From an uncultured candidate division Zixibacteria bacterium (GTDB lineage: Bacteria; Zixibacteria; MSB-5A5; UBA10806): DNA of 64,000 nucleotides. Under the pieces are notes generated by a model that saw nothing but the letters and a program-made list of their open reading frames with translations, ran no database searches and was not told the origin of the DNA. The stretch is taken from assembly GCA_963817915.1 (NCBI GenBank), contig CAWFQL010000017.1, positions 320,001 through 384,000 of the forward strand, given 5' to 3'. A program made the translations under genes and the position numbers. How positions within the stretch are numbered: the first letter of the stretch is position 1; the number at the start of each line of letters is the position of its first letter. This document shows, one piece after another, positions 12,297 to 44,752 of the stretch.

Positions 12297-13930
12297 ATGA
12301 AAATGCGACCAGTAGATTTCAAAGAACTTGCCGGTTCCACCCGGCTATTCATTGATTTTATTGATTGCAACAAGCAAGGATTAGGTCTTTTTGATTGCGA
12401 TTTCAGATCGATCGAATCTTATAAAAAAGCGGCTGTAGAGATTGATAAAAATTCCTACAGCCGTAATCTTTTGGTTTCCAGCATCGAAGCCGCGACATCT
12501 TCCATACATCTTTCGAATAAAACCAGAGACAATATAAAAAGGCTTTCTCAGCCCGATTCGCTTATCGTATTTGCCGGACAGCAGGTAGGCATGCTCCTGG
12601 GGCCGATGTATACAATGTATAAGGCATTGACAGCCTATAAACTGGCGAAATGGCTGGAATCAGAATTGCATCGTCCAGTTATACCCTGCTTTTGGATGGC
12701 AACAGACGATCATGATTTTGATGAAATAAAAAGCTCGAATTTCCTGAGTAGAGATGGCGATATTAATATATCGACCTATTCTCCATCCGTCCCCAAACCC
12801 GGTCTACCGATTGCTGAACTTAAAATTGATGATGGAATCCAGGGCTTTTTGCAGTCTATCAAAGAGAATTTGATCGAGACCGAATTTACCGGCCAAATCG
12901 TCAAATTGATCGAGGAATTTTATACTCCGGATAGGACATTGGTCGACTCATTCACCCTGCTTTTTGATCGATTGCTCGGCGATTACGGAATTGTCCCGGT
13001 CGATCCCAATTATCCTGGCATGAAAAAACTAATGGCCCCGGTATTTCAATCCGAAATCGAGAATCATAAAGAAGCGTTCGATCTCTTTGAAAGTAAATCC
13101 AGCGAGCTGCTGAAAGCCGGTTACCATAGGCAGGTTCACAAAACAGGTTCGACTCTTAATCTTTTTTACTTCGATGGCATCCGCCGCAATATCGTTTTTG
13201 CGGATGGTAAATTTCAGCTGGACGGGCATTCGGAAAAATTCGACAAAAATCGATTGCTGGAAATGCTGGCCTCGTCACCAGAGAAATTTTCTCCCAATGT
13301 CCTGCTTCGCCCCATAGCGCAATGCTGCGCGTTTCCTACCATAGCGCAAATTGTTGGGCCATCTGAGGCGGCTTATTTTGCCCAGATTGAGCCCCTATAT
13401 CGGTTCTATAATATTCCGCTGCCGGTTGTCAGGCCGAGAATCTTCGCCTCGTTTGTAGAGCCCCATATTTCAAAAGTAATGAAAAAACTATCTATTGATT
13501 TTGCTTCGTTGCATAATGATCGAGAACATGAAATCAGCAGAGTGATCGAGGATAATTTTCTTACCGATCTGCAGGGTGATATCGAATCGTGAAAACTCGG
13601 ATTGAGCAAGCATTCGATGATTTCGCCAGGCCTCTGGAAAATACTGATAAAGAAAGCTTTCAGGTAATTGATCGTCATAAAAAGAAAATAGATTACGAGT
13701 TGAATCATATGACTGAAAGACTGCTCGCCACTCACAAAAAAAGACATGATATGGTCAGGGGACAAATAGGCCGAACAGCATCATTCCTTTTTCCTGAAGG
13801 TAATTTTCAGGAGAGAGTACTTTCACCGATTTATTTCGTAAACAAATTCGGGCCGAATATTTTCCAAAATATGGAAATTGAACTTGATTTAAATTCATTT
13901 GGCCACCAACTGATCGAGGTTGAGCCGTGA
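12297..13930 (+). CDS. bshC: Bacillithiol cysteine-adding enzyme BshC, split by a -1 frameshift at about 13580-13589 (544 aa if repaired)
   Basis: ORF1 has AGQQ..GPMYT.YK, FWMATDDHDFDE, FSPNVLLRP and GPSEAAYFAQ. ORF2 (13589-13930) has the BshC C-terminal motif LFPEGNFQER. Directly upstream of bshA. Confidence 0.88.
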
Positions 13931-15051
13931 AAGTCGGTATTGTGTGCTATCCGGTGAAGGGCGGCTCCGGCGTTGTCGCGTCGGAGCTTGGACTGGCGCT
14001 ATCAACAATGGGAGTGGAGGTGCATTTCTTTTCTTACGCGCTGCCGTTTAGATTAACAGGATTTGACTCCAAATTTATTTTTCATGAAGTCGAAGTATCC
14101 CAATATCCATTATTTAAGCATCCTCCTTACACACTTACCCTGGCTTCAAGGCTGGCCGAGGAATCCAAGCGAAATGGTCTTGATATCATTCATGTGCACT
14201 ATGCGATCCCCCATGCTATAAGCGGCTATATCGCCAAGCAAATACTCGGCACGAAAAAGCCTAAACTCATTACGACCCTCCATGGAACCGATATTACTTT
14301 GATCGGTCTTGATCCTTCATTTTTCGCGGTCACCAAATTTTCCATGGAATCATCCGATGCCTTAACAACGGTCAGCAAATATATTCATGATAAAACTTAT
14401 TCGTCGTTCGGGATAAAGAAGCCAATCAAGGTTATTCCGAATTTTGTTGATAATGACCGTTTTAAACCGAACCAGGCAGGATGCGATCGGTCGATATTCG
14501 CTCTGCCGAATGAAAAAATTATCATGCATTTATCCAATTATAGGTCTGTCAAGAATTCCAGGGACGTTGTTCGGATATTCAAAATTGTAAATGAAAAAAT
14601 GCCATCAAAATTAGTTCTCGTTGGGGATGGACCTGATGCGCCCAACGTTATGTCATTGGCCAATGATATGGGAATAGGAGATAGAACAATATTTCTGGGC
14701 GCGCAGGACGCTGTCGAATCGATTCTTTGCAAGGCTGATCTGTTTCTGCTGCCATCGGCTTCAGAAGCTTTCGGATTGGCGGCGCTGGAAGCATTGGCTT
14801 GCGGAGTACCGGTGGTTGGTACGATCGTTGGCGGATTACCCGAACTTATTAAGGATGGGGAAGTAGGATATCTCGAGCCGGTCGGCGATTATGAAGCGAT
14901 GGCGAGACGATCATTGGAGATTTTATCAAATGACGGACTTCATGCAAAGATGTCTAAAAACGCAAGGACTTTAACGGTTGAAAAATATGACACAAAAGAT
15001 ATCGTCAAGCAATATTATAAATATTATCAAGAGGTGCTAAATGAAGCTTGA
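13927..15051 (+). CDS. bshA: N-acetyl-alpha-D-glucosaminyl L-malate synthase
   Basis: CYP..GGSGVVASELG, HVHYAIPHA, TTLHGTDITL and the GT4 motif EAFGLAALEA. Confidence 0.95.
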   Translation: MKVGIVCYPVKGGSGVVASELGLALSTMGVEVHFFSYALPFRLTGFDSKFIFHEVEVSQYPLFKHPPYTLTLASRLAEESKRNGLDIIHVHYAIPHAISGYIAKQILGTKKPKLITTLHGTDITLIGLDPSFFAVTKFSMESSDALTTVSKYIHDKTYSSFGIKKPIKVIPNFVDNDRFKPNQAGCDRSIFALPNEKIIMHLSNYRSVKNSRDVVRIFKIVNEKMPSKLVLVGDGPDAPNVMSLANDMGIGDRTIFLGAQDAVESILCKADLFLLPSASEAFGLAALEALACGVPVVGTIVGGLPELIKDGEVGYLEPVGDYEAMARRSLEILSNDGLHAKMSKNARTLTVEKYDTKDIVKQYYKYYQEVLNEA

Positions 15052-15751
15052 TGTCTTAGCCATTGCGGCTCATCGCGATGATACCGAAATTGTCAGCGGC
15101 GGGACTATAATAAAAATGGTCGACCTGGGGTATTCTGTCGGCATTCTTGATCTAACCGCGGGCGAGGCTGGTTCTCGCGGCGATGCCAATACCCGCGCCG
15201 AAGAATCTGCCAATGCAACAAAGATCATGGGCCTGCAATATCGCTATAACCTCCAGTTGCCCGACGCCGGGTTATTTCTTACTCAGGAAAACGCTCTCAA
15301 GGTCGCGATGATTATCCGTGAAACCAGACCCGAAATGGTAATCTTGCCATATTGGAAGCAAAGACATCCAGATCATTCAACAGCAGGCGATATAGGATAT
15401 CGAGGATGCTTTTTGGCAGGGCTTTCAAAAATGCGAATCCCGGGCGATGCTTATAGGCCCCGGAAAATCATTTATTCGACTTCATTCACCGAAACCGAAC
15501 ATGCGTTCATTGTCGATATCACCGAACAATACAAACGAAAATGCGAAGCCGTAGCCTGCTATAAAACTCAATTCGAAGAAAAACCCGGCCAGCGGGAAGT
15601 ATACCCACCTGCCCGCGATATTTTCGATTACATGGAAATCCGTAATAGACAGTATGGATATATGATTGGTGTTCGTTATGGCGAGGCCTTCATTCAGAAG
15701 GAAATGCTATCCGTCGAAGACCCGCTAAAATTGCCCGGCAAATCGATATAG
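15041..15751 (+). CDS. bshB1: Bacillithiol biosynthesis deacetylase (PIG-L family)
   Basis: AHRDD.E, DLTAGE.GSRG, RHPDH and YGEAF. Follows bshA. Confidence 0.9.
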   Translation: MKLDVLAIAAHRDDTEIVSGGTIIKMVDLGYSVGILDLTAGEAGSRGDANTRAEESANATKIMGLQYRYNLQLPDAGLFLTQENALKVAMIIRETRPEMVILPYWKQRHPDHSTAGDIGYRGCFLAGLSKMRIPGDAYRPRKIIYSTSFTETEHAFIVDITEQYKRKCEAVACYKTQFEEKPGQREVYPPARDIFDYMEIRNRQYGYMIGVRYGEAFIQKEMLSVEDPLKLPGKSI

Positions 15752-29813: not shown

Positions 29814-31319
29814 ATGCAAAATAGAAAAATCTTATTAGTTTTATTATCGGGGATAGTTAGTTTTATTTCATTTCCACCATTTCACTTTGGTCTTCTTATT
29901 TTTATCGCTCTGGTTCCTTTGCTTTACTCTATAGAGGACGTATCGCCGAAAAAGGCATTTAAGTACGGCTATATATGGGGGATGATTTTTTATTTGGGTC
30001 TTATCTACTATATTGCCTGGGTAACAGTCCCCGGAATGATTGCCACGGTGTTGGTATTATCATTAATTCCCGCATTTGGTAGTATGGTATTTGAAAGGCT
30101 TCTCGCTAGAAACAGGTGGATTGCGATAGTATTTGTGCCATTATTTTTTGTGGCGGTCAATTGGCTTTTCACTATGTCGGAATTGAATTATCCCTGGTGC
30201 GATTTCGGATATGCACTTGATTATTATCTGATAATGATTCAGGCTGCCGACCTGGGCGGAGTATATTTAATCTCAATTTTAATTCTATTCTTCAATATGA
30301 TTATTTATGTGTCGATTTCGCCTAAATTCGAAATGACTTCAGGAACTCAGTGGAAACTACGATCCGGGTCTCTCTTAATTGTGGCATTCCTGTTAGTTTA
30401 TGGAGGTTTCAGACTATCCGGTTCTAATGATAAATCTGCTGGAAATTCTCTGAAGGTCGGGATGATTCAGAGCAATATGACTGAGGATTTGAAATGGGAT
30501 CCACAAAATCTCCAGATGAATTTCGACAGGCATTTTGCACTTTCGAGAAAAGCCGTATCGCAAGGCGCCAGCTTCCTCGTATGGCCCGAAACTGCTATCC
30601 CAGCATATATTCTTCAGGAAAAACAGAAATATTATAAAATTAAAGCTTTTGTAGACTCGCTGAATGTCCCCATCCTTACAGGCATCCCATATTATGAGAC
30701 GGTTGGGCCCAATCAATATATTTACTTCAATTCGGCTGCGCTCCTCAAACCGTATAAAGAAGGATATACATTATATTCAAAAGTTCATTTAGTGCCGGTC
30801 AGTGAACGAATTCCATTTTCCGATAGATTCAAGATTCTGAAAGATATCCATTTAGGCCAGGCGGATTTTTCATCCGGTCGGGAACAGACTGTTTTCAGTC
30901 TTAATGGCTTTAAATTTGCCACATTGATTTGCTTTGAATCGGCGTTCCCGGGATATTGTCGCGATTTCGCCAAAAAAGGCGCGCAATTTTTTGTCGTAAT
31001 CACCAACGATATGTGGTTTGGACGGACATCATTGATGGAACAACACGCTATGATGTCGGTATTCAGAGCCGTAGAAAATAGAATTCCAGTAGTTAGAGCT
31101 GGTAATACGGGAGTTTCGATGGCAGTTAATAAGTGGGGCAGGATTTTGACTAAAAGCGACATTTTTAAGGAGCTTTTTATTACTGCGGAAATCAGCCCAA
31201 TCGATTCAAAGAGCATTTATGGAGTCATTGGCGATATAATACCCAAAATTGCAGCAATATTGACATTTCTCGCTTTGGTTATTGCCTTTTGGCCCGGATT
31301 TAAATATCTTTACCGGTAA
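29814..31319 (+). CDS. lnt: Apolipoprotein N-acyltransferase
   Basis: N-terminal TM bundle and nitrilase triad VWPE / K.HLVP / ICFES, plus ITNDMWFG and RAVENR. Confidence 0.93.
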   Translation: MQNRKILLVLLSGIVSFISFPPFHFGLLIFIALVPLLYSIEDVSPKKAFKYGYIWGMIFYLGLIYYIAWVTVPGMIATVLVLSLIPAFGSMVFERLLARNRWIAIVFVPLFFVAVNWLFTMSELNYPWCDFGYALDYYLIMIQAADLGGVYLISILILFFNMIIYVSISPKFEMTSGTQWKLRSGSLLIVAFLLVYGGFRLSGSNDKSAGNSLKVGMIQSNMTEDLKWDPQNLQMNFDRHFALSRKAVSQGASFLVWPETAIPAYILQEKQKYYKIKAFVDSLNVPILTGIPYYETVGPNQYIYFNSAALLKPYKEGYTLYSKVHLVPVSERIPFSDRFKILKDIHLGQADFSSGREQTVFSLNGFKFATLICFESAFPGYCRDFAKKGAQFFVVITNDMWFGRTSLMEQHAMMSVFRAVENRIPVVRAGNTGVSMAVNKWGRILTKSDIFKELFITAEISPIDSKSIYGVIGDIIPKIAAILTFLALVIAFWPGFKYLYR

Positions 31320-31325
31320 GGCGCT

Positions 31326-33521
31326 ATGTTAAAAAGCTTTTGTAAATTATTATTCTTGATTACAATTTTAAATGTCTCTCTATGGGGACAAAATTGGTCA
31401 AGTTATACAAATACCGATAATGTTCGTCGAATTTTGATTAATAATAATCAAATCTGGGGGGTGACTTCAGGCGGTATTGTTTCTTATCGGCCTTCAGATC
31501 AATCCATAACCAAATTGACCAATGTTGACGGATTGGGCGGGATCAATTATTACTGCATATCTTCCGATACCACCGGCAATATTTGGTGCGGTACATCAAA
31601 TGGCTGGTTAACTAAATTATTAGTCAACGGAAATATCAAAAATTACTCAATTCGGGATAGCACCGGTTATATTGCCAGACCCGTATCGTTATTCGATTTG
31701 AAAACCGACGGACTAAAATTGTGGATTGCCAATGATCTAGGTGTCAGCAAATTTATGATGTATTCCAACGGCGGGGAAATCAAGGATACCGCCCGAAAGC
31801 TGGGCAATCTCCCCAACGAGGAAGATGTAACCAGTATAGCGATAGTTGGGGAGAATCTATGGGCCGGCACAGCCCGCGGAGTAGCGTTCATAAATAAGGA
31901 TACTATAGATAATATTCAGTATTATGGTTTCTGGAGATCATTTAGCAAAGGCCAAAACGGATTAGGTAATACCGACAGTGATCAGAATATAAATTCCATA
32001 ATTTCTTATCGCGATACTGTCGTGATCGGCACTCTAAATGGGGTTTACAAATTTACGACTGATCCTGATACATTATGGATTCCAATGGGTTTGCAGGGGA
32101 CATCCATAGTCCGTCTGGCGATGATAGATACTCTTTTGATGGCGTCCGCAGGCGGCCAGCTTTTTAATTATAACGGTTCAAGCTGGGTTACATACCAATA
32201 TTCTCCTGTACCTGATGTTTTGAATGATATTGTATCTGATTCCACCGGAATATTGTGGGGTGGAACTCGAAGTAAGGGATTGACGGGGTTGTCCGATTCA
32301 ACTTGGAATTTATATTCAATTCCCGGCCCGGCCTCGAATATTATCAGAAATATCGCTATTGATTCTAGCGGATCAGTCTGGATGACTCATAGCAATAACT
32401 CGATCAGTATTTTGAGAGCTGGTACCTGGACCATAAATAATTCAGCCAATTCTCCGTATAGTGGACAGCAATCTTACTCCATCACCGTAACTTCAGATCA
32501 CTCCGTGTGGATTGGAGATTGGGGAAGAGGACTTTTTAAATTTGATGGAGCCAATTGGTTTCATTGGGACTTTTCAAATAGCCCAATGTGGGGAGTGTAT
32601 GATGTCCAATACCGTGATTCGTCCTATTGGGCAGTGACTGATATTGCAGAAGATTTCCGTGGAGATATTTGGATGAATGCGCTTGACGCGGTTCAGAATC
32701 TTACATTAGGTGTATTTTACCCGACGGATTCCTTATGGCATACTTTTTTCACTGGGCCCAATAGCTTCCCGGACAATGATGTTCATGAATTAAAGGCGCA
32801 GGGAAATGTATTATGGGTAGGTCGCGAGGCCGGACTCGATAGATTTCATTTTGGCGCTTCGCCTTTTGATTCATCCAGCTATTCCATTGAGCCCTTCATC
32901 AGCAGGGAATTTATTCTTGATCTGGCTCTTGATCCCGATAGCAATCTCTGGTTTGGATCATTGACCGGACTTTTCTATACGACAATTTATTCTGATTCGG
33001 CAGATAGAGTGGCACAACCGCTTGAATTATCCGGCAGAGTCAATGCCGTGGAATCCGATGGTGCTGGCAATATATGGGTTGGTACCGGCACAGGAATTGG
33101 TGTCCTAAACGCGGACAAGAGTTCATGGAGACATATCTATAATACTTCGAATAGCCCTCTTCTTAATAATTCGATTACCGATATCGCAGTTGATAAAGTA
33201 AAGGGTACAATTTATATCGGCACCGAAGGCGGATTATCTATATTTGAATCAGGTGTGGAACTTCCAAACATTAATCGAGTTGAAGCATATCCCAATCCTG
33301 TTATCGTATCTCAGGGGGAAAGTAGAGTCCGATTTAAGAGAATTCCTCCCGGCTCGACAATATTTATTTACAACGTGGCAGGCGAATTGGTGGCCCGGGT
33401 TGTTACGGATGAGTGGAATTTAAAAAATTCCAATAATCAGCCTGTCGCAGGCGGTATCTATATTTTCCAAGTGAGATCTGGGAATACTTCTGGCACTGGA
33501 AAACTTGCAATCATCAAATAA
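31326..33521 (+). CDS. PorZ-like beta-propeller protein with C-terminal T9SS/FlgD-Ig-like sorting domain
   Basis: 731 aa. Signal peptide then W.SYT, repeated D..G.IW.GT propeller blades, NSPLLNNSITDIAVD..KGTIYIGTEGGLS, then AYPNP...GGIYIF...GKLAIIK. This matches PorZ architecture. Confidence 0.7.
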   Translation: MLKSFCKLLFLITILNVSLWGQNWSSYTNTDNVRRILINNNQIWGVTSGGIVSYRPSDQSITKLTNVDGLGGINYYCISSDTTGNIWCGTSNGWLTKLLVNGNIKNYSIRDSTGYIARPVSLFDLKTDGLKLWIANDLGVSKFMMYSNGGEIKDTARKLGNLPNEEDVTSIAIVGENLWAGTARGVAFINKDTIDNIQYYGFWRSFSKGQNGLGNTDSDQNINSIISYRDTVVIGTLNGVYKFTTDPDTLWIPMGLQGTSIVRLAMIDTLLMASAGGQLFNYNGSSWVTYQYSPVPDVLNDIVSDSTGILWGGTRSKGLTGLSDSTWNLYSIPGPASNIIRNIAIDSSGSVWMTHSNNSISILRAGTWTINNSANSPYSGQQSYSITVTSDHSVWIGDWGRGLFKFDGANWFHWDFSNSPMWGVYDVQYRDSSYWAVTDIAEDFRGDIWMNALDAVQNLTLGVFYPTDSLWHTFFTGPNSFPDNDVHELKAQGNVLWVGREAGLDRFHFGASPFDSSSYSIEPFISREFILDLALDPDSNLWFGSLTGLFYTTIYSDSADRVAQPLELSGRVNAVESDGAGNIWVGTGTGIGVLNADKSSWRHIYNTSNSPLLNNSITDIAVDKVKGTIYIGTEGGLSIFESGVELPNINRVEAYPNPVIVSQGESRVRFKRIPPGSTIFIYNVAGELVARVVTDEWNLKNSNNQPVAGGIYIFQVRSGNTSGTGKLAIIK

Positions 33522-34464
33522 AATTTCATTCTCGCCTATTAGCACTTGTGATCCCCTATTGGGAACTACATGGGGTGGTATATTCTATCATCCAATTTTT
33601 GTAGATGCTGGCGCAGAATTTCTAAATTTAGCAGGACATTCATTTAATATAATATTGGACGAAAGGAATAGCGGCGCGCTAAATATATTAGCGAGAGAGA
33701 GGCCATTAATTCGAAGGGCCACAATCCCGCATTTATTTCAATACTGCGGGCCTCTTATTTATGGTAAAGATTTCGATTTAGCTTTGATTGCGAAATCAAT
33801 TGACCATTATTTTTCGCTAAATTATGATTTTGCGTATTTGAGTATCCCCCCCCAAACCCCGCTGGATAAAAGCCATTTTAATGGCTGGAAAATAATTCAA
33901 ACTTATACTGTTTCAATTGGCGGCGCGGATTTAAAAAATTGGGGCAGGGATTTTAAGGAACGCGTTGTCAGGAAGATAAAAAAGGCGCAAAAAGAAAAGA
34001 TAGAAGTTAGAATTGTAGATAACCTCCCGTTAGGGCTTTGGCAAATGCCTTTTGAGCGGAAAGGAAAAAGACCGATAATACCGCCGTCGTCAGTTGAAAG
34101 TTGGGCGCGGAAATTAATTGATGCGTCTCTCTTGAAAGTTTATGCGGCTTTCTTTGAAAATGAACCAATCGCCTTCCGCGCAGAATTGATTTATGGGAAT
34201 TTTGCATATGACTGGGTTGCGGGCTCTAATCCCGAATTTCATAATCTTGGATCAAATCAATTGCTGATGGCTGAGATCGGTTATGATATAATGAGGAACG
34301 GGATCGAGACTTGGGATATGGTCGCAGGACAGATCGAGAGTATTGCTGAATTCAAGAAATCATTTGGGGGAAAAGAAACACCTCATCTGCACATAAAGAA
34401 AAGTTTTAATTTAGCGGGACGACTGTTCGATATTCTCAGGGAAATAAAGCATGCAAGGCACTAA
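33505..34464 (+). CDS. GNAT/FemAB-like (Acetyltransf_6) protein, VimA-like
   Basis: RKIKKAQKE, AYDWVAGSNPEF..LGSNQLL and IAEFKKSFGG are characteristic of FemAB-type GNAT proteins. Confidence 0.72.
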   Translation: MQSSNKISFSPISTCDPLLGTTWGGIFYHPIFVDAGAEFLNLAGHSFNIILDERNSGALNILARERPLIRRATIPHLFQYCGPLIYGKDFDLALIAKSIDHYFSLNYDFAYLSIPPQTPLDKSHFNGWKIIQTYTVSIGGADLKNWGRDFKERVVRKIKKAQKEKIEVRIVDNLPLGLWQMPFERKGKRPIIPPSSVESWARKLIDASLLKVYAAFFENEPIAFRAELIYGNFAYDWVAGSNPEFHNLGSNQLLMAEIGYDIMRNGIETWDMVAGQIESIAEFKKSFGGKETPHLHIKKSFNLAGRLFDILREIKHARH

Positions 34465-35722
34465 TTTCGCTACGGAATTGCGTTATTTTTATAGCGATAA
34501 TCTCTTATCCCCAAATTTAGTCAATCATTGTTTCGCCTATTTATCTGCCGTGATAGGCGTGAAATTCAAAATAGATAATGAAAATCCTCAAATTTATAAG
34601 AATAATAATATTAGTCCTCCCGATTCCGTCGTCCTTAATTATAATGAATTTGATAATGGCTCTTATGATATCATATCTATTCTTGCCGACAAGATGACAT
34701 TATCACTGAAGCAAGGACCATTTGCTAATTCCGAAACTCCTGCCGATTATAAGTCCGGCCCCGGATTAAGCCGATTAATATGGGACTTCAAAAAGAAATT
34801 GTTTGAAGTCGGCGCGATAACAAAGCAAGAAAGTATGACAAAATTCTGGCCAAATGACTATAAATTTGGAGTAGCCCTGACTCATGATGTAGACATAGCC
34901 CGAAGAACAATTAAAGGCGGTATCCGTCTGCTATATAAAAAAAGTGTCAAGGGCGGCTTATCCGCTCTTGTCGATTCCTGCTTCGCGCCGATTAAAGGGC
35001 GAGGGAATCCCTATGACGCAATTGGCAAATGGATAACGATCGAAAAAGATCTGAAATTAAAATCCACATTTTATATATTTGCGGGAAATCGCCTATTCGA
35101 AAATGATCCAGTTTACAATCTTAATATATTGTCCGACCGCATAGCTGAGCTTAAAGAAAATGGTTTCGAAATTGCATTGCACAGCAGTGCCGGCTGCTAT
35201 GATGGGAATCATATTCCGGAAGCTCAAGGACAATTATCAGATTATTGCGGAAATAGTATCGACGGAATTCGGCCGCATTACATGTCCGCATTTCTTCCTG
35301 AGTTTTGGCGTGCGATCGAAAAATCTGGGTTCTCGTATTCTTCATGCCTTGGCTCAGATCAGTCGATAGGTTTCTTTAGGGGAATAGATCTTCCTTTCGT
35401 TCCATTTGACAGAGAACGGGATCGGGCTCTGAATATTGTTGAAATCCCGCTGGCAATTATGGATTGCGGATTGATAGGGGGCACGACCGCGAATGAAGAT
35501 AGCGTTTTCGACCGGGCGAAACTGCTGATTAATGATACATCGAATTCCGGAGGACTAATAGTATTGGATTGGCACCAGAGGACGTTGTATGAACGCGATT
35601 TCCCAGGCTGGGGAAATCTATTTATAAAAATTGTCGAATATATGAAGGATAATGGCGCATATTTTGGAACCATGAGCGAAATATCTAAGCTGGTAAAATC
35701 AAGAATGAGCGGCGAATTTTGA
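34451..35722 (+). CDS. Polysaccharide deacetylase (CE4-like), VimE-like
   Basis: LTHDVD, STFYI, EIALH, GIRPHY, EIPLAIMD and LDWH. Confidence 0.8.
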   Translation: MQGTNFATELRYFYSDNLLSPNLVNHCFAYLSAVIGVKFKIDNENPQIYKNNNISPPDSVVLNYNEFDNGSYDIISILADKMTLSLKQGPFANSETPADYKSGPGLSRLIWDFKKKLFEVGAITKQESMTKFWPNDYKFGVALTHDVDIARRTIKGGIRLLYKKSVKGGLSALVDSCFAPIKGRGNPYDAIGKWITIEKDLKLKSTFYIFAGNRLFENDPVYNLNILSDRIAELKENGFEIALHSSAGCYDGNHIPEAQGQLSDYCGNSIDGIRPHYMSAFLPEFWRAIEKSGFSYSSCLGSDQSIGFFRGIDLPFVPFDRERDRALNIVEIPLAIMDCGLIGGTTANEDSVFDRAKLLINDTSNSGGLIVLDWHQRTLYERDFPGWGNLFIKIVEYMKDNGAYFGTMSEISKLVKSRMSGEF

Positions 35723-36840
35723 AAATAGTCTACTTTATATTAAATAGTTTTGATTTTGATTCTCGGGCAAGGCTTGAAGTGGAAGCGCTTAAGACTGCAG
35801 GGCATCAAGTCGAAATAATCGCCACTACCGGATGCGAATCAAATCATTACCTGGATTGCCCGATTCATCGAATTCCCCAATGGACATGGCCATCGAGAAA
35901 AATGCGTTTTATTCAATACAATATTTTGGCGGCCTTAAAAGCGATAAAAATTAAGCCGGATGCTTATCATGCGGTAGATTTGGATACGCTGCGCGCCGCA
36001 ACTTGGGCCTGCTCTAGAACCGGTGGTAAGGTAATCTATGAATCCCGAGAATTGTATACCGAAATCGAAGCCCTGAATGGCAGGCCATTTATCAGAGGAA
36101 TATGGCGAAGGCTCGAAACCCGATTGATAATAAAGGCGGCGAGGGTTATTACTGTTAACGATTCTATCGGCCGCGAATTGGTATCGAGATACTCGATAAT
36201 ATTCCCAAATATAATAAGAAATGTCGCTCCGAAGCCGGGCAGTCTCAGACCAATAAATTTGCATTCGAAATATAATATTCCCGCAGGGTGGAAAATATTG
36301 GTTTTCCAAGGTATATTAAGAAATGGACAGGGACTTTTAAAGCTACTCGAGATGATCAAGAGTATGGAGAGAGTATCGCTGGTAATTATTGGTGATGGGC
36401 CATTAATGAATGTTCTAAAAGACAGGGCCAGGAGTCTGAGCATTGAAAATAAAATTCGATTTACCGGGATGATTCCAGCAGCTGAGTTGCTTAATTACAC
36501 GGCAGGTGCCGATGCTGGAATGCTGCTACTGGAAGATGTTTCCATAAATCACAGACTGGCGTTGCCGCAAAAATTGTTTCAGTATTTGATGGCCGGAATT
36601 CCACAAATTGTTTCGCCGCTGCCTGAGTTGGCAGGTTTTGTCAGTTCCGAGAAGACCGGGTTTGTAGCATCCTCTGCCAGTCCTGAAATAACCGCACACC
36701 AGATCGATAATTTCCTTTTTAGCCTCGATCAATATAATCAAGCAAAACGAAACTGTATCGAATCCGCGAAAAAACACAATTGGGAGAATGAATCAACTAA
36801 ATTGATAAAAATGTATGAAGAAATGGCTGATTCTCAATGA
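35719..36840 (+). CDS. Glycosyltransferase family 4, VimF-like
   Basis: DSRARLE, HAVDLDTL, YESRELY, LALPQKLFQYLMAGIP and NWENE. Confidence 0.85.
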   Translation: MKIVYFILNSFDFDSRARLEVEALKTAGHQVEIIATTGCESNHYLDCPIHRIPQWTWPSRKMRFIQYNILAALKAIKIKPDAYHAVDLDTLRAATWACSRTGGKVIYESRELYTEIEALNGRPFIRGIWRRLETRLIIKAARVITVNDSIGRELVSRYSIIFPNIIRNVAPKPGSLRPINLHSKYNIPAGWKILVFQGILRNGQGLLKLLEMIKSMERVSLVIIGDGPLMNVLKDRARSLSIENKIRFTGMIPAAELLNYTAGADAGMLLLEDVSINHRLALPQKLFQYLMAGIPQIVSPLPELAGFVSSEKTGFVASSASPEITAHQIDNFLFSLDQYNQAKRNCIESAKKHNWENESTKLIKMYEEMADSQ

Positions 36841-37772
36841 TTGAATATTCGATAGTAATTTCTACATTTAATCAAAAAAACACGCTTGCGAAGATTCTTG
36901 ATAGTCTTGCCAGGCAGATCTCCAGCCCTAAGATATTTGAAGTTATTATTACCGATGATGGCTCGAACGACGGAACGGATCAATTTATAAAAGGACTCAG
37001 ATTTCCGATTTTTCTAAAATATATCCGTTCTCAAAAAAGTGAAGGTCGTGCCAAAAACCGCAATAAAGGCTTTGAAAAAGCTGTTGGTGTTTGGGTTACA
37101 TTTCTCGATGGCGATATGATTCCAGAGGCGAATTTTATTTCGACCTTGTGGGCGGCATGGAATAGCGACCTGGCTCCTGTTTACGTTGGAAATGTCAAAT
37201 GGCCGAAAGAGTGGCGATCCGGTAGACTCGAAAAATATCTTTATTCAAGAGGCAGATTATCCAACACCGATAAAGGACAAATACCGGGCGTATATTTTAC
37301 AAGTAATAATTTTTCGATCAGGAAAGAAGTCTTCGGAAAACTTGCCGGCTTTGACCCCAAGTTCGAAGGCTGGGGTGGTGAAGATACAGATTTTGGACTT
37401 CGCCTCGAAAAGAACATACATAAGATCTATTATTTGCCAGAGGCGATCTGCTATCATTACCATAAGAGGTCAATTACTGAAGTTGTCAATGATTACAAAA
37501 AATATGGCCAAAATGGGTATTCAAGGCTTATCGCATCCCATCCTGATACCGTAATTTTCAACAATGGATGGCTCCTTGGGCTTCCTGATTCAAAGTACAA
37601 TTTTGGTAGAAGATTATTTTCGTTCATCTTATTCCCACTCAGAACAAGTGCATTTCTGGCATTTTTAAGGGCTATATTTATGATCACGGGATTTCCTCTG
37701 TGTACCAATTTTTGCTTCGACTGGCTATTCTACGGTAACCTTGCTATGGGGTACAGACAAGGCACAAAATGA
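36837..37772 (+). CDS. Glycosyltransferase family 2
   Basis: DDGSND, FLDGD and GWGGEDTDFGLRL. Confidence 0.9.
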   Translation: MIEYSIVISTFNQKNTLAKILDSLARQISSPKIFEVIITDDGSNDGTDQFIKGLRFPIFLKYIRSQKSEGRAKNRNKGFEKAVGVWVTFLDGDMIPEANFISTLWAAWNSDLAPVYVGNVKWPKEWRSGRLEKYLYSRGRLSNTDKGQIPGVYFTSNNFSIRKEVFGKLAGFDPKFEGWGGEDTDFGLRLEKNIHKIYYLPEAICYHYHKRSITEVVNDYKKYGQNGYSRLIASHPDTVIFNNGWLLGLPDSKYNFGRRLFSFILFPLRTSAFLAFLRAIFMITGFPLCTNFCFDWLFYGNLAMGYRQGTK

Positions 37773-37924: not shown

Positions 37925-38866
37925 ATGAGCAAATTAATTATTCAAATACCCTGCTATAATGAAAGCGGGCAGCTTGAATCCACTATTAGAAATCTTCCCA
38001 AAAATATCCCGGGTTTCGAAAACGTGGAAATTCTCGTCATCGATGATGGCTCCACCGATAATAGTCACGAAATCGCCTTGAAATGCGGCGCAACAAGGGT
38101 GGTTCGCCTGAAAAAGCACCAGGGGCTTGCCAAGGTGTTTTCAATGGGTTTAAAGACTTCGCTCGAGATGAACGCTGATGTAATCGTGAATTATGACGCC
38201 GATGCGCAATTTCCGCCTGACCAGATTCAACAATTAATCGATCCCATAATCAATGCCAATGCTGATATGGTTATTGGCTGCCGCGATATGAAGAATACTG
38301 ACCATTATGGAATAACCAAGAAATTGCTGCAACGATTTGGCAGCTGGGCAGTCAGGCAATTTTCAGGTACTGATATTCCCGATACTACGTCCGGATTCAG
38401 GGCATATTCAAGGGAAGCGGCGATCAAAATCAATATTTTATCTCAATATACCTATACGCTAGAGACAATAATTCAGGCCGGAAGAATCGGTCTTTCGATT
38501 GCGGCTGTGCCCGTTGATGTCAGGCCATCACCGCGGAAGTCACGGCTTATCTCAAGCAATTGGAATTATGTCGCCCGCTCGGCAGTGACAATATTGAGAG
38601 TATATATGATGTACAGCCCGCTAAAGACCTTCGGACTTTTAGGAGGAGTATTTTTTGCGGGAGGTGTATTCCTCGATTTGAGATACTTGTTTTTATATTT
38701 TCTTTATAATCAAAAAGGTCATCTGCAATCATTGATTTTATCGGCAATACTGATTCTAATAGGTTTTATGGTTTGGGTTCTTGGTTTATTGGCCGATTTA
38801 GTAAGCGCTAATCGTTTGCTGCTCGAAGAAACACTTATCAATATAAAAAAGTCTAATTCGAATTAA
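37925..38866 (+). CDS. GT2 polyprenol-phosphate glycosyltransferase (DPM1/GtrB-like) with two C-terminal TMs
   Basis: IPCYNE, DDGSTD, DADAQF, DTTSGFRAYSR and C-terminal hydrophobic helices. Confidence 0.85.
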   Translation: MSKLIIQIPCYNESGQLESTIRNLPKNIPGFENVEILVIDDGSTDNSHEIALKCGATRVVRLKKHQGLAKVFSMGLKTSLEMNADVIVNYDADAQFPPDQIQQLIDPIINANADMVIGCRDMKNTDHYGITKKLLQRFGSWAVRQFSGTDIPDTTSGFRAYSREAAIKINILSQYTYTLETIIQAGRIGLSIAAVPVDVRPSPRKSRLISSNWNYVARSAVTILRVYMMYSPLKTFGLLGGVFFAGGVFLDLRYLFLYFLYNQKGHLQSLILSAILILIGFMVWVLGLLADLVSANRLLLEETLINIKKSNSN

Positions 38867-38874
38867 TATCCGCA

Positions 38875-40183
38875 ATGAAGCTATTAGTCATATCCTCAAG
38901 TTTTCCGAAAACCCCCGGAGACAGCCTGTCCCCATTTGTATGGGATTACTGCAAGGGCCTGAAAAAGCTCGGATGGGATATTACCGTTCTTGTTCCTCAT
39001 AAAAATGGTTTCCCTGAAAATGAAATTTGGGATGATATCAAAATCAAGCGGTTTCGTTACCTGCCCGAGAGATTCGAGACCCTCGGATATGATGCCGGCG
39101 GAATTATCCCGAATCTCAAAAAGAAGCCATGGGTAATTATTAAAATAGCGTTCTATATTCTATCAATGTATAGAGAATCATTGAGACTTGCGGTAGATGA
39201 GGATTTCGATCTTGTTAATTTTCATTGGATTTATCCTAGCGCATTTTGGCTTAACAGCATTTTCTGGAAATGCAACGCGCCGATCGTGATTACGGGGCAT
39301 GGTACCGATATCCATCTCTCACGAAAACCGATTCTGAAATATTTCGCGACAAAAGCTTTTGATAATTCAGCGGCAGTCACTGTTAATAGTGAATATATGA
39401 GTTCAATTTTGAAATCTAATTTTCCATCTGAAAAAATTAAAGTCATTCCCATGGGTATCGATACTTCGAAATTTACTCCGTCGGATATTCCGCCATTCTC
39501 AATCAAGAACAGTTCTGTACGTTGGGAGATTAATTAAGCAAAAAGGGATAAATCTTCTGGTGCAGGCATTTGTCGAAAACTTGCGGCATTATTCTGGCGC
39601 TAAGTTGAAGATTATCGGCTATGGCCCTGAACGAGACTCATTGAAGAAATTTATAGATGATAGCGAGATATCGGATTCCATTGAGATAATCGATTCTATA
39701 GAACATGATAAATTACCCGAAATTTATCGCCAGGCACGAGTACTCGCGTTGCCCAGCCTTATCCCCGAGGGTCTCGGATTGACAGTCGCGGAAGCCGCGG
39801 CCTGCTCGGTTCCTTCAATAACTTTTGGCCTTGGAGGCACCGCTGATTTGGTTATCAATGAAAAGACAGGGTTAATCGTTGATCCAGACGTCAAATCCCT
39901 TTCTGATGGTATCGCAAGATTGATGGGCGACAATAATCTCGTTGACACCATGGGGAAAGATGCCAGGAAATATGTCGTCGATAAATTTGGTTGGGATTCA
40001 TTGGCCGGGAGATTCGATTTATTGTTTAGAGAAATCGTGTCCAATGCCAAAGCCATTAAAGATAAATCTTTTTCGAAATCAGCGAAAATTATGATTTCAT
40101 CGATAATTGTCATTACAGTAGCAGCGTATTTAATTAAAACATTTGTCGATAGAATCGAAAAAATAATTCATATAATGAAATGA
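38875..40183 (+). CDS. Glycosyltransferase family 4, frameshifted near 39496 (about 435 aa if repaired)
   Basis: The N-half has SSFP, HGTD and IPMGID. Removing one T at ccaTTct gives SQSRTVLYVGRLIKQKG, in frame with 39560-40183 (EGLGLTVAEA). Confidence 0.82.
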
Positions 40184-42057
40184 TTATATTTGATATCGTA
40201 ATTCCAATTATCTGGGCAGGAGGGCTGCTTTCACTGGGTCAGATTGCCGTATCCGGAGAAGGATCACGTTTCAAATTTGAAAATATATTCCCGTTGACTG
40301 CGTTTATGGGGACGATAATATTTGCTATCGGCCTGTTGGGATGGATTAACCACCAATTATTCTACATCATTACGCTACTACTCCTAATTCTATTTGCTTT
40401 TAAATTCAAGGTATTGCTAAGCCATCTTAAAGAATTTATTAAAAATCACCTGTTTGTATTCATAATAATGGTTTTAATCTCGGTATGGCTGTCATTGGCG
40501 GCGCTTTCTTATCCTGTTGGCCCGGATGCCTTATATTTCCATCTTGGTCTGCCGAAGATCTACGCCAGAGCGGGAGGAGTTACTTTTATTCCAGGAAATA
40601 TTTTTTCGGCCTCGCCTCGCGCCATGGAAATGATGTCAACTGCATTTCTCTCGATGGGTTTGGAACGAGGCGCGCAGTTTTTTATTCTGCTTTTAGCTAT
40701 AGCTTTAATTATTTCCGTCTGGAGAAAAGCCGATGAAATAGGCGGTTCTGGAATTATAGCCGCGTTAATTTTAGTTTCCGCCTCTATTTTTTCCACGCAG
40801 TTGGTTGATTCAAAAAATGATATACTTTTAACAGGAGTCATATTTTTTGCGGTTGTTCAATTTTTCGCTTTCAGGCAAAGTGACTCCATAAAAAGTTTGA
40901 TTTTCGCCGGTATTGGAGCTGGGCTTGCGGCTGGAGTTAAGGCTACCGGTTTGAGCATTATTGGCGTTCTTGGTCTTATATTGCTATATGATTTTATAAC
41001 CGGCCGAACCAAGTTTAAGCAATTTGCCCTGTTTCTATCAATATCGATAGTAGTTGCATCACCATGGTACGCGTATTCCTGGTTCGTAACCGGTAATCCA
41101 TTGTACCCATTTTTCGGCAATTATTTTCATTCACCTTATTGGTATCAAATATTCGACGCTTTCAATAGAGCCATATCGGCTAAAACCGCCGACACCAATA
41201 TATTAAATTTAATCGTCTCTCCCTTTAATTTAGTTTTCGATCCTGAGGCATTTCGCGGCAGGATCGGATATGCCGTGATACTCTTGCCATTGCTGTTGCT
41301 ATTTATGAAGAAAATACCCACTGCTATCAGATGGATATCTTGCCTTTCATTAATCTATTATCTGTTCTGGTATTTCGGCTTTCCGTTGGCAAGGTACTTG
41401 ATGCCGATATTGCCGCTTCTGGCGATCGCTGGGTCATATTTTGCAAAGGCGGCTATTGATGAGCGAGGGGTAATTAAATATACAATAATTATGGCACTTA
41501 TTTTTGCTGTTCTAATCCCTATTCCAACTGTACTTAGTCAGACATCTTATAGGGTAATCTCTGTAATTAAGAATATGGGTAGGGATAGCTTTCTTGAGCA
41601 ATATAAAACATTTGATCCCAATAGCCCCCGCAGCGGCGAAATGGCGAATCAATTTGAATATTTCAAATGTTGGCGGGCCATTGAGAGCAATACTTCTCCT
41701 GATGGTAAAATAGGGATTCTATCATCATTCTGGACAAGGGCAGATGGGTATTATCTGAATCGAAATTTCGTTTATCTCAATCCTTCTGAGCAAAACGCGT
41801 ATGATTTTACGACTATAAGAGACTCCTCTGAAGTGTCGCATGCATTGTCGAATCTTGGAATCTCGATTGTCGTTGTCGATAGTCTGGTGCTGGCCGAATT
41901 CTCATCCAAATCGCCATGGAAAGATTCTCCGGGATTCCCTATATTTTCCTTGGGGGTCGGAGCCCTAAATAGATATTTAAAAACATCGGCCGAACTAATT
42001 TATTCTAATGACAGATTTTCTGTATATAAAATAAAAATCCTGCCTCCGAAATATTGA
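40180..42057 (+). CDS. Polytopic membrane GT-C (ArnT/PMT-like) glycosyltransferase
   Basis: 625 aa with many TMs, first-loop motif DALYFHLGLPK, KND, PWY...TGNPLYPF and RYLMP, then a soluble C-terminal domain. Confidence 0.65.
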   Translation: MIIFDIVIPIIWAGGLLSLGQIAVSGEGSRFKFENIFPLTAFMGTIIFAIGLLGWINHQLFYIITLLLLILFAFKFKVLLSHLKEFIKNHLFVFIIMVLISVWLSLAALSYPVGPDALYFHLGLPKIYARAGGVTFIPGNIFSASPRAMEMMSTAFLSMGLERGAQFFILLLAIALIISVWRKADEIGGSGIIAALILVSASIFSTQLVDSKNDILLTGVIFFAVVQFFAFRQSDSIKSLIFAGIGAGLAAGVKATGLSIIGVLGLILLYDFITGRTKFKQFALFLSISIVVASPWYAYSWFVTGNPLYPFFGNYFHSPYWYQIFDAFNRAISAKTADTNILNLIVSPFNLVFDPEAFRGRIGYAVILLPLLLLFMKKIPTAIRWISCLSLIYYLFWYFGFPLARYLMPILPLLAIAGSYFAKAAIDERGVIKYTIIMALIFAVLIPIPTVLSQTSYRVISVIKNMGRDSFLEQYKTFDPNSPRSGEMANQFEYFKCWRAIESNTSPDGKIGILSSFWTRADGYYLNRNFVYLNPSEQNAYDFTTIRDSSEVSHALSNLGISIVVVDSLVLAEFSSKSPWKDSPGFPIFSLGVGALNRYLKTSAELIYSNDRFSVYKIKILPPKY

Positions 42058-42088: not shown

Positions 42089-44506
42089 CTATTTTATCAT
42101 AACCATCTGTTTGACTATTTTTGTCGGTCCGGAATTAAATCTGTAGAAATATAATCCGCTCGAAACTTTATTCCCGTACTCGTTATCGCCATTCCATACA
42201 ATCCGATTCGCTCCAGCCGGGAATTGGCCCGATACCAGATTTTTCACAATTCGTCCAGCGATATCGAATACTGTGATTTCAGCCTTCCCGGCGGACGGCA
42301 TCTGAAAATCGATCGTTGTCGATGGATTAAATGGGTTCGGGAAATTCTGGCTGATTGTCGGATAAGCTGGCAACGGTAAATCTTCATTAGTGCCCGAAAG
42401 CGATCCGACCGTCACTAAATTTTGACCGGGAATATATCTGGGTTTGGTAGCAGTCACAGTCATTCTTCCGCTACCTAGCGGAGTAACGGTGAATTCTATA
42501 TTTCCAGAATTATCAGTCACGCCTGTCTGGAAAATATCTCCAGACATATATAAACATACGTTAGCTCCGGCCGATGGCCCATTGCTATCAGAAACTTGGT
42601 AGCTTATAGTCTGAGTCTCATTATCATTTATGTGAGAAGGGCCCGTTATTGAAAGATTACCCTCTATGGAAAGCCACATACTCATCTCGGGGTCCCCGAA
42701 AAGATTGTGACCATAATTGATATCGCGATAGCTCGGATTGTCAATTTTTGACAACGCTTCCGCTACTGCAAGTCTGCTTGTGGAATCCTGAAGAATATAT
42801 TGGATGAATTTGCTTTCGAGTCTATAGGATGATGATACCCATCCCCATCTGGTATTGCCAAGGAATGCTACACCGCCGCCAGGCTGTAAAACATAAGATT
42901 CTGCAAGGCAGTATGATGTGATCCATGGGCCCGGGTTAAAGATTCCTTTATCGAAATCATATGCGGCAACATCACAGCTAATCGAGTAATGTATCGCCGG
43001 CTTATCGACTGTGGTCAGGTGGTTAAAGCCTAATTCATCTGCATAATATAAGGTATCGCCCCATACTCGCGATCTGTCACTCCTGTTAAACCCTACCGAA
43101 CGGACCACATAAAATGATATGGCGCCGTGATTGAGGTTGGAAATAAATCCCCATCCTTCATTCATAAGGTTGATTACATCAACCGCCGAAGGACCCGTAG
43201 GAGCAGATGAACCGCCGGTCGGCTGTTCAATTAGCGAAGTTGCGTTAACATTAAAATTCGATGGCATCAAAGCTGAAAGGACTACATGCTGATTGAAATC
43301 ACGCATTTCGTCGGCACAGATAAACAAGGCTTTAGTCAAATAACTTGGATCGCCATTGCCGGGATTTTTCTCGTAGTTAACTGCTTTTGTAGTCCATAAA
43401 AGAGCCTGGTCTGCGGTTCTTGCCGGTACACGCCCAACATAAATTTCAGGATAATAATCCGGATGATCCTGAATTGATTCGCCCCAGACGCCATCATTAT
43501 CAAAATCCCAATCGCCCGTGAGATCGGAATAGTATATATCGCCAACCTGCTGGCTGCCCAGTGCAGGTATGGAATTACTTATATTTCCAGGATATAAATA
43601 TCTTATTGGAATTACGTCTTCGTCGCCGCCCAGTATAACCCATCTGACACCGTTATTGTATGCCTGAATAAGATAATTACGCAGCCTTTCAGCGTTATCT
43701 CTGCCCGATGACGTTCCCAAAACATCTTCAATAAAAACTAGATTCGCGGGAAGTCCCTTCTGATTTTTCCATTCTATATATGGACCGAATCCTGGCGCGA
43801 TTGCGGCGGAAGTAATAATCAAAAACTGCGGTACATTTATATCAGTCGCAAATCCAACTTTTCCCATGGGAGGTAATGATGTGAACATCGGCAGATCGGC
43901 TTTATTATCTATAAGATTACTGACTTCCTTATAGGCAAATCGATCGCTGGCTAGCCGAAGATTATTGCCGGATGTTCTCGGAGATAAATTAAAATGCACC
44001 ATGATTCTGGGATAGAAAATTATTTCCCTGGATAATGGTTTGAATGCGACCGGATAGACGGCGATACTGGCCAGATGAATATCACCCCAATAGCCGGAGC
44101 TGAGAATTTCAACGCGGGTATTTGGATAAATTTCATCTTTTCCATATATCTGCATGTCCGGTGCGTCGGCCGTATCGGGACCATCGAGATCTGTTCTTTG
44201 ATCGCCCTTCACATAGTCAATATTATACCCCTGCCCAATTGACTGAGGCAATCCCAGTTCTACAGTAATACCGTCAACATCAGTTTCAGGTGGAAGTACG
44301 ATTTTTACAATCTTATATCCTATGGATGGCGCCCCAGGGACAAGGTTTAGCTCGCCTTGTGCAATCGTCGCCTGACCATTCGATAGATCTATCGTGCTCC
44401 CATCCGTTTCGATAATATAATCGAAACTCTCTTGTGCTGACTGCCCGGAGTCAGCGTAACTCGCAGAAATCAATAAAGTTAGGATGAATATCAGCGTGCT
44501 TTTCAT
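42089..44506 (-). CDS. Gingipain-like C25 cysteine peptidase with propeptide and FlgD-Ig/T9SS-type C-terminal domain (805 aa)
   Basis: Start moved to MKSTLIF (AAGGAGGGG RBS). Signal peptide, propeptide, WKNQKG, LGGD, VGRVP, catalytic NHG and SISC, LFGDP, and CTD QNFPNPFNPST...SSGLYFY...KQMVMIK. Confidence 0.87.
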   Translation of the reverse strand: MKSTLIFILTLLISASYADSGQSAQESFDYIIETDGSTIDLSNGQATIAQGELNLVPGAPSIGYKIVKIVLPPETDVDGITVELGLPQSIGQGYNIDYVKGDQRTDLDGPDTADAPDMQIYGKDEIYPNTRVEILSSGYWGDIHLASIAVYPVAFKPLSREIIFYPRIMVHFNLSPRTSGNNLRLASDRFAYKEVSNLIDNKADLPMFTSLPPMGKVGFATDINVPQFLIITSAAIAPGFGPYIEWKNQKGLPANLVFIEDVLGTSSGRDNAERLRNYLIQAYNNGVRWVILGGDEDVIPIRYLYPGNISNSIPALGSQQVGDIYYSDLTGDWDFDNDGVWGESIQDHPDYYPEIYVGRVPARTADQALLWTTKAVNYEKNPGNGDPSYLTKALFICADEMRDFNQHVVLSALMPSNFNVNATSLIEQPTGGSSAPTGPSAVDVINLMNEGWGFISNLNHGAISFYVVRSVGFNRSDRSRVWGDTLYYADELGFNHLTTVDKPAIHYSISCDVAAYDFDKGIFNPGPWITSYCLAESYVLQPGGGVAFLGNTRWGWVSSSYRLESKFIQYILQDSTSRLAVAEALSKIDNPSYRDINYGHNLFGDPEMSMWLSIEGNLSITGPSHINDNETQTISYQVSDSNGPSAGANVCLYMSGDIFQTGVTDNSGNIEFTVTPLGSGRMTVTATKPRYIPGQNLVTVGSLSGTNEDLPLPAYPTISQNFPNPFNPSTTIDFQMPSAGKAEITVFDIAGRIVKNLVSGQFPAGANRIVWNGDNEYGNKVSSGLYFYRFNSGPTKIVKQMVMIK

Positions 44507-44545
44507 TTTCCCCTCCTTGAGTGAACTCAATACGATTAAGACTTG

Positions 44546-44561
44546 AGCAACATGGATGCCG
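44546..44561 (-). promoter_or_regulatory. sigma54 (-24/-12) promoter for the C25 protease
   Basis: Minus-strand CGGCATCCATGTTGCT matches YGGCAY-N5-TTGCW with exact GG-N10-GC spacing, about 40 nt upstream of the ATG. Confidence 0.65.
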
Positions 44562-44752
44562 GGGCAGTATTGCTTAGGTATCGGTCTGGAACGGCCCTGT
44601 AAGACATTAATAAATATACGGTTACAATAGAGGAGCATATTGCCTCGGTATAACCTTTTCCGATAGACAGGAGTTTTATATGGGATTCGGCCTATATTCA
44701 TCGCTGTATTGCAATATCTTTAAATAATCTACAACTTTGTGAAAGTTTTTTC

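Follow-up and report, generated by a model that had tools for sequence, protein, structure and literature searches.

A porZ-linked gene cassette of Zixibacteria with a predicted role in the glycan anchoring of type IX secretion cargo

Introduction

Do the genes that follow a porZ-like gene in a bacterium of the candidate division Zixibacteria supply the glycan onto which type IX secretion system (T9SS) cargo is anchored? The question is raised by a stretch of 64,000 nucleotides, hereafter the window, which covers positions 320,001 to 384,000 of contig CAWFQL010000017.1 (assembly GCA_963817915.1) and in which a run of five genes occupies positions 31326..37772. An initial annotation, made from the sequence alone, described this run as a porZ-like gene fused into an operon with vimA-, vimE- and vimF-like genes. 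In the studies consulted, the sugar that links T9SS cargo has been defined in three Bacteroidota of the mouth, and the third of these studies points out that there must be further routes of biosynthesis (PMC11969387). Six other phyla of the Fibrobacterota-Chlorobiota-Bacteroidota (FCB) group are listed in PMC11285876 as possible T9SS bearers, a list in which Zixibacteria does not appear. No publication linking Zixibacteria to T9SS or type IX secretion was found in a literature search that left most subscription papers outside and reached the spelling Zixiibacteriota through its prefix only. By analogy with Porphyromonas gingivalis, we consider it moderately likely that a cargo-anchoring glycan of Zixibacteria has its carrier and its late-acting enzymes encoded at this locus. 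The cassette would work like the Wbp/Vim linker pathway and is not identified as the vimAEF operon.

Identity of the core genes

All five core open reading frames (ORFs) were confirmed on the forward strand over the whole of their span, and the overlaps at successive junctions amount to 17, 14, 4 and 4 nt. The operon of the initial annotation is therefore retained as one run of overlapping genes, while the fusion is not, the five ORFs being separate.

Judged by sequence comparison and structure prediction, the first gene (31326..33521, 731 amino acids) is a PorZ orthologue and, within the T9SS attachment complex, a predicted surface glycolipid carrier. Its product displays a signal peptide, two seven-bladed beta-propellers and a C-terminal domain (CTD) of the PorZ/PorU type; Pfam reports Reg_prop and a weak Por_Secre_tail. 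The NCBIfam PorZ model NF052228 spans residues 3-730 (E 2.6e-49) with a score below its cut-off (168 versus 260 bits). This model matches a single gene in the host genome and 239 of the 251 genomes of the phylum (E up to 1e-12), 8 of the 251 being over the cut-off. When the AlphaFold (AF2) model of the protein (predicted local distance difference test score, pLDDT, 91.5) was submitted to Foldseek, P. gingivalis PorZ (5m11) ranked first over the full length, with a template modelling (TM) score of 0.69 and an E-value of 7.7e-34. A role as sensor domain of a two-component system was rejected, the hybrid two-component sensors reaching a TM of 0.35 against 0.69 for 5m11. A quick tree with 37 rows, in which family f17 is not represented, places a Zixibacteria clade (18 proteins, support 99) as sister to the Bacteroidota PorZ clade (14 proteins, support 99) and sets five propeller (Reg_prop) paralogues apart with a support of 90. 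The identification of the propeller gene as PorZ made in the initial annotation is upheld by the full-length profile match, the grouping with Bacteroidota PorZ and the top-ranking fold. In P. gingivalis, PorZ is described as binding both anionic lipopolysaccharide (A-LPS) and PorU (PMC8545088).

The genome, of 3.33 Mb and 93.9% complete, was searched for the partners of PorZ, and PorU, the PorV family and SprA were all found over cut-off, with 11 PorV-family loci. PorU (688 versus 420 bits) lies about 50 kb upstream and is followed by a PorV-family gene. Its His848 and Cys883, located in GHG and TASC motifs, are taken here to be the catalytic His/Cys dyad. A PorU homologue is present in each of the 121 phylum genomes that are at least 90% complete. 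As to potential cargo, 160 ORFs display a YPNP-type motif near the C-terminus, 139 of them with CTD-like spacing and a terminal K/R. The T9SS that emerges comprises SprA, PorU, the PorV family, PorZ and about 140 CTD proteins; the motor and ring known from other systems may be missing from it. The PorV-family gene that follows porU (C17:301717-304293; L100:6718-9291) encodes 858 amino acids, some 550 of which lie between the first 40 positions of the model and the remainder, and its profile also matches a propeller model.

The second gene (33505..34464, 319 amino acids, TTG start) encodes a VimA-like protein of the Acetyltransf_6 family (PF13480). Its predicted structure (pLDDT 93) adopts the FemAB-like double-GNAT fold, with Foldseek matches to FemX (TM 0.66) and to streptothrisamine-bound Sbb17/Sba18 (TM 0.59-0.61), two enzymes that depend on aminoacyl-tRNA. 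Orf11, which is related to the latter pair, is reported to glycylate an amino sugar, streptothrisamine, from Gly-tRNA (PMC12945691). On its modelled fold, the window GNAT is predicted to be an aminoacyl-tRNA-dependent amino-sugar N-aminoacyltransferase. For comparison, the vim locus of Tannerella forsythia was retrieved through a published primer; its gene order is recA-vimA-vimE-wbpI-GT4-GT4. The vimA gene of this species is reported to complement P. gingivalis, with replacement of Ser by Gly (PMC7468200). The window GNAT is the best match of T. forsythia VimA among the 3233 ORF calls of the host genome, although a weak one (E 0.004), and the PEP-CTERM FemAB of the same genome is not matched at all. 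Alignment of the window GNAT with the VimA family using hhalign gives a P of 98.7. A tree (LG+G4, unrooted) was computed from 48 of the 94 collected rows, 46 being dropped by hand for redundancy and run time, and the window GNAT belongs there to a clade termed Z1, whose profile was used to choose the Bacteroidota rows. A grouping of the window GNAT with PEP-CTERM FemAB, the possibility left to be checked by the initial annotation, was rejected by the approximately unbiased (AU) test (p 0.0005), and TIGR03019, the PEP-CTERM FemAB model, does not match it at E 0.001.

The third gene (34451..35722, 423 amino acids), of carbohydrate esterase family 4 (CE4), encodes a predicted deacetylase of the VimE family (DUF7033/CE4-like) with no Pfam hit. 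VimE (NF053580) is its sole NCBIfam match (E 6.4e-14, 51 bits versus a cut-off of 440, which none of the 251 phylum genomes passes). The window CE4 is likewise the best match of T. forsythia VimE in the host genome, and hhalign aligns it with the VimE family at P 99.8 and E 1e-29. The motifs THDVD, H244, RPHY, MD and WH are retained and all align with T. forsythia VimE, the invariant residues being D146/D148/H244/R274/H276/D338/H375. DUF7033 itself is detected in an f14 orthologue and in VimE but not in the window CE4. VimE-like matches are widespread: 75 of the 251 genomes of Zixibacteria and 47 of the 141 of Bacteroidota contain one, as do two controls from the archaea. The two closest CE4 homologues carry the label Candidatus Zixiibacteriota, in support of the placement of the host genome in Zixibacteria. 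Comparison of the CE4 profile with solved structures returned none at E below 0.3.

The fourth gene (35719..36840, 373 amino acids, TTG start) is a family 4 glycosyltransferase (GT4) according to Pfam, and the fifth (36837..37772, 311 amino acids; PF00535), the conserved end of the core cassette, a family 2 glycosyltransferase (GT2). As used here, VimF-type refers to the GT4 found behind vimE in loci of the Tannerella kind, a label given by gene position in a comparison that did not contain P. gingivalis VimF. So defined, the identification of the window GT4 with VimF had to be abandoned: hhalign gives E 1.4e-8, versus 6e-38 for the second GT4 of the deacetylase-free loci described below, and the window enzyme belongs to another GT4 type. 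This other type follows true VimE, together with a GT2, in two of the six Bacteroidales VimE loci examined (L243 and L244; hhalign E 2e-53, GT4 similarity 201-222 bits).

Conservation of the cassette

In order to follow the cassette across the phylum, 85 porZ loci were hand-picked from the 239 matching genomes, namely all 20 of the order and 65 selected for family spread and contig room; 83 of these have downstream and 82 upstream DNA. A FemAB-like GNAT lies within two genes of porZ in 74 of the 83 Zixibacteria loci, and in 74 of 74 outside family f16. In four f16 genomes (L271-L274), the GNAT is found behind an epimerase, a nucleoside diphosphate (NDP)-transferase and a DegT aminotransferase instead of porZ. 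The CE4-type cassette is present in 24 of the 83 loci, belonging to families f1, f2, f14 and f17, and marks one deep clade. In the remaining loci the order is GNAT-GT4-GT4-(GT2) with no deacetylase, the second GT4 being VimF-type and the GNAT belonging to a clade, Z2, that groups with PEP-CTERM FemAB (support 100/99). Whichever the cassette type, the GT2 occurs in most of the loci. A single clade of all porZ-linked GNATs (Z1 and Z2) is rejected (AU p 0.00014); two non-sister GNAT clades thus occupy one slot, each with a different Vim-type partner. The expected synteny is therefore confirmed for the GNAT behind porZ, while the full order porZ-GNAT-CE4-GT4 is restricted to one clade. In f14 and f17 (L138-L142, L065, L094), an S-adenosylmethionine (SAM) methyltransferase is located between porZ and the GNAT. 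The linker of Prevotella intermedia is described as partly methylated (PMC11969387).

An exosortase over cut-off is encoded by the host genome and by 95 of the 121 phylum genomes, whereas none was found in f6 (0/3), f7 (0/11), f13 (0/2) and f14 (0/2), four families that all keep the porZ cassette. With PorU in 121 of 121 genomes, the cassette tracks PorU and not the exosortase.

[quoted passage not shown] These genes are named by family and gene order, their specificity being predicted only. As they lie elsewhere in the genome, like PorU and the lipopolysaccharide (LPS) genes, the compact module first envisaged is not self-contained. A WbpE-like gene occurs in 23 of the 24 genomes of the order, and the dehydrogenase-acetyltransferase-DegT-epimerase operon in 15 of 15 relatives among those listed (of 22 loci). 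The host wbp operon (C10:78715-81681) is devoid of the Gfo/Idh dehydrogenase kept in the operons of relatives (L207-L221), and a stand-alone Pseudomonas-type WbpB is found at C16:131319-132272, an apparent non-orthologous replacement. A proposed tracking of this WbpB by the CE4 cassette failed. With that query, f1 relatives (0/12), f14 (0/5) and f17 (0/2) were negative, and f2 (5/9) and most families of the majority type, without deacetylase, were positive; the wbp operon of the f1 and f2 relatives has a different Gfo/Idh dehydrogenase. In most families the first GT4 of the Z2 loci is linked to porZ, and five of six f1/f2 regions have it inside the wbp operon.

Proposed pathway

The pathway can be summarized as follows. 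The Wbp-like enzymes, whose genes are observed elsewhere in the genome, would produce a UDP-2,3-di-N-acetyl-hexuronate. The CE4, to judge from VimE, would strip one N-acetyl group from this sugar, and the GNAT would add an amino acid, probably from aminoacyl-tRNA, to the freed amine, leaving a free alpha-amine on the sugar. The GT4 and GT2, perhaps with a GT-C protein, would then load the sugar onto a lipid-linked glycan, probably LPS. At the surface, PorZ would bind the glycolipid and present it to PorU, which, as in P. gingivalis, would cleave some 140 cargo proteins at their CTD and join them to the amine. In the majority of Zixibacteria, where a different GNAT and a VimF-type GT4 occur without deacetylase, the amino sugar would probably be acylated directly. 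The steps are modelled on the Wbp sugar, deacetylation, aminoacylation, LPS transfer, PorZ delivery and PorU transpeptidation described in PMC7468200 and PMC13086638.

Flanking genes

The upstream genes on the same strand form the run purM-gpmI-lnt, and the stop codon of lnt (29814..31319; apolipoprotein N-acyltransferase, TIGR00546 over cut-off), which served as synteny control, lies 6 nt before porZ. In an f7 genome (L265:1125-5267), lnt and porZ share a single stop-free frame of 1380 codons, and two further f7 genomes display long open frames at porZ. Downstream, the gene run extends beyond the core: past a gap of 152 nt, the forward strand carries another GT2, then a GT4 in two parts and a PMT_2 protein, with which the run ends at 42057. 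The second GT2 (37925..38866) resembles polyprenyl-phosphate sugar synthases of the AglJ/ArnC kind (TIGR04182 at 108 bits, short of its cut-off); it is present in the host genome only and absent from the loci of relatives (L035-L054). The GT4 at 38875..40183 is read as two ORFs (38875-39537 and 39560-40183), is a single gene in relatives, and is aligned across both frames by an intact relative of 394 amino acids. As wbpI (C10:78715-79810) and recA (C3:27968-29033) are also split by frameshifts in the host assembly, sequencing indels are suggested rather than pseudogenes, and the split GT4 is probably due to an assembly indel. The PMT_2 membrane protein (40180..42057; PF13231, GT-C-fold-like) may act in the periplasm as a glycosyltransferase or ligase; it varies from locus to locus, with homologues in the f2, f14 and f17 loci. 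A scan of the locus for promoters and terminators returned consensus matches only.

On the reverse strand, a gingipain-like C25 peptidase (42089-44701) with a CTD and His/Cys motifs is convergent on the cassette in most families; it is likely to be T9SS cargo and not PorU (69 bits versus a cut-off of 420). Positions 12297-15751 of the window hold genes for bacillithiol, namely bshC, bshA and bshB1, each above its NCBIfam cut-off. Elsewhere in the genome, a lipid A operon contains lpxC over cut-off and lpxA-, lpxB-, kdtA- and lpxK-like neighbours named by eye from their sequence. A Gfo/Idh dehydrogenase (C12:74228-75217) lies between the lpxA-like and lpxB-like genes, presumably the arrangement of GnnA, which by analogy suggests a lipid A with a diamino-glucose backbone.

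Alternative explanations

A number of observations weigh against an anchoring pathway of the Wbp/Vim kind. The direct similarity of T. forsythia VimA and VimE to the window genes is weak (14 and 17 bits). The clade Z1 of the window GNAT (97/95) falls outside the VimA clade (99/97); joining it to the wider 13-row clade containing VimA is not rejected (AU p 0.38), and joining it to the narrow 9-row VimA clade is borderline (p 0.054). The Z1 deacetylases also form a clade of their own, outside that of T. forsythia VimE. What survives of the vimA- and vimE-like assignments is thus family membership, supported by the searches with the T. forsythia proteins, hhalign and the CE4 motifs, and not orthology, the CE4 in addition scoring below the VimE cut-off. 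Much closer VimA relatives (192-195 bits; L143/L144) are found in family f11, where they reside in clusters of the O-antigen type that have no linkage to porZ. Nine porZ loci, all of family f16, have no GNAT. The split between the Z1 and Z2 cassettes coincides with the deepest branch of the PorZ tree (f17 not being in the tree), which points to one replacement event. Neither PorM nor PorN was detected above cut-off (best GldM 17 and GldN 15 bits) in this 93.9% complete genome, PorK and PorL not having been searched, and on these searches the canonical PorL/PorM motor and PorK/PorN ring of Bacteroidia was not recovered. The cleavage of the CTDs, the structure of the glycan and its binding by PorZ are here predictions by analogy.

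Some further contrary observations also favour an alternative that we regard as rather unlikely: an ordinary N-aminoacyl-sugar cassette for LPS, O-antigen or capsule, found behind porZ through slow gene-order change while PorU uses another amine. The gene lnt, for which we know of no link to the linker-sugar pathway, is the immediate upstream neighbour of porZ in 80 of the 82 loci, and adjacency to porZ is weak evidence by itself because this unrelated neighbour is equally constant. In Bacteroidota, porZ sits among unrelated housekeeping genes such as ribH or recO-like genes. Among 20 hand-picked loci (of 101), none has a GNAT, CE4 or glycosyltransferase among the flanking genes listed, and a VimE-like gene within 10 kb of porZ was found in 0 of the 40 genomes holding both. 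The adjacency of porZ and cassette may therefore be inertia. The wbp operon moreover holds Wza- and Wzz-like genes and, in the host, an XrtA-type deacetylase over cut-off, so that its product may also feed capsule, exopolysaccharide (EPS) or O-antigen. O-antigen cassettes usually differ between close relatives, and the conservation of the porZ-linked set in all 74 loci outside f16, over 15 families, therefore counts against a generic polysaccharide cassette. So does the refilling of the slot, after one replacement, by an aminoacyltransferase with a Vim-type partner. As described in the studies of the linker, vimA-vimE pairs are known in Pseudomonas, Aeromonas and Vibrio, such pairs occurring in Gammaproteobacteria free of T9SS (PMC7468200), so the pair is not T9SS-specific, and the linking sugar varies even within Bacteroidota (PMC11969387). 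In the species studied, however, the PorU nucleophile is an N-aminoacyl sugar on LPS (PMC7468200, PMC13086638), as the anchoring pathway would require.

A role of the cassette in glycosylating lipoproteins or other exported proteins, or in making a glycolipid other than LPS, is improbable. Such a role would rely on a polyprenyl-phosphate sugar made by the GT2 and on a GT-C protein, in step with Lnt, with PorZ binding the product or being merely co-expressed. The near-universal position of lnt directly upstream, its stop-free frame with porZ in L265, the PMT_2 proteins of many loci and the AglJ/ArnC-like GT2 of the host would fit such a function. PMT_2 is nevertheless missing from most majority-cassette loci, the AglJ-like GT2 is confined to the host genome, and the Vim-type parts are left unexplained. 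Service to an exosortase/PEP-CTERM system or its exopolysaccharide is very improbable: the host does possess an exosortase, three PEP-CTERM-like proteins and the XrtA-type deacetylase of its wbp operon, and the majority-type GNAT does group with PEP-CTERM FemAB, but a separate PEP-CTERM FemAB resides in its own EPS cluster of the host genome, the window GNAT does not group with that family, and the four families in which no exosortase was found keep the cassette.

The anchoring pathway remains the preferred reading, and none of the outcomes that the initial annotation had named as fatal to it, such as a propeller protein outside the PorZ group or a genome lacking porU and porV, was observed. 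A wider proposal can be made tentatively. The phylum as a whole may possess a T9SS without PorM motor and PorN ring, with more than 100 covalently anchored proteins and two interchangeable linker modules behind porZ. One would combine deacetylase and aminoacyltransferase; in the other, a Wbp amino sugar would be aminoacylated directly, alongside a VimF-type transferase. In the window's own clade, the acceptor might be finished by a GT-C protein, which may act in place of O-antigen polymerisation.

Comparison with known systems

If the proposed pathway is correct, sortase-type anchoring to LPS would extend throughout Zixibacteria, would therefore be older than Bacteroidota, and may operate there with neither the motor nor the ring known so far. 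The locus designates small enzymes open to expression and in vitro assay. The second GT4 type and the deacetylase-free route are candidates for the linker pathways of Bacteroidota lacking VimA, VimE or VimF; P. intermedia is described as anchoring through a different sugar without VimA and VimE (PMC11969387).

The exosortase-associated FemAB and deacetylase EPS loci (PEP-CTERM/XrtA; TIGR03019, TIGR03006) similarly associate a GNAT-superfamily protein with deacetylases and glycosyltransferases, but the window GNAT is not matched by TIGR03019 and the window CE4 is of the VimE/DUF7033 and not of the TIGR03006 kind. FemX, Orf11, Sba18 and Sbb17 share the double-GNAT fold (TM 0.59-0.69), and Orf11 performs the predicted type of reaction, the addition of Gly from tRNA to an amino sugar. 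Their identity to the window GNAT is 12-15%, and they act on precursors of peptidoglycan or on intermediates of antibiotics.

The likeness to PorZ of the PorQUVZ attachment complex, as far as the latter is described (5m11, PMC8545088), includes the two seven-bladed propellers, a CTD of the uncleaved type, the full-length fold, the single copy and the co-occurrence with PorU. Differences are the identity of 18-21% to known PorZ, the score below the NCBIfam cut-off, the PorV-family genes of Zixibacteria, none of which is assigned as PorQ, and the absence of detected PorM and PorN. In the Bacteroidales vimE-GT4-GT2 loci (L243, L244), a VimE that passes the cut-off precedes a GT4 of the window's type and a GT2, but unlike the window cassette these loci do not adjoin porZ.

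The closest parallel is the Wbp/Vim pathway, with the vimA-vimE-vimF genes of P. gingivalis and T. forsythia as described in PMC7468200 and PMC13086638. The window cassette is linked to porZ instead of recA, its GNAT and CE4 lie outside the VimA and VimE clades, its GT4 is not VimF-type, and most of the phylum uses a version without deacetylase. Shared with that pathway are the order of FemAB-like GNAT, VimE-family deacetylase and GT4, the Wbp-like genes for the precursor, among them an epimerase of the WbpI type that T. forsythia also has, and the presence of PorU, the PorV family and PorZ.

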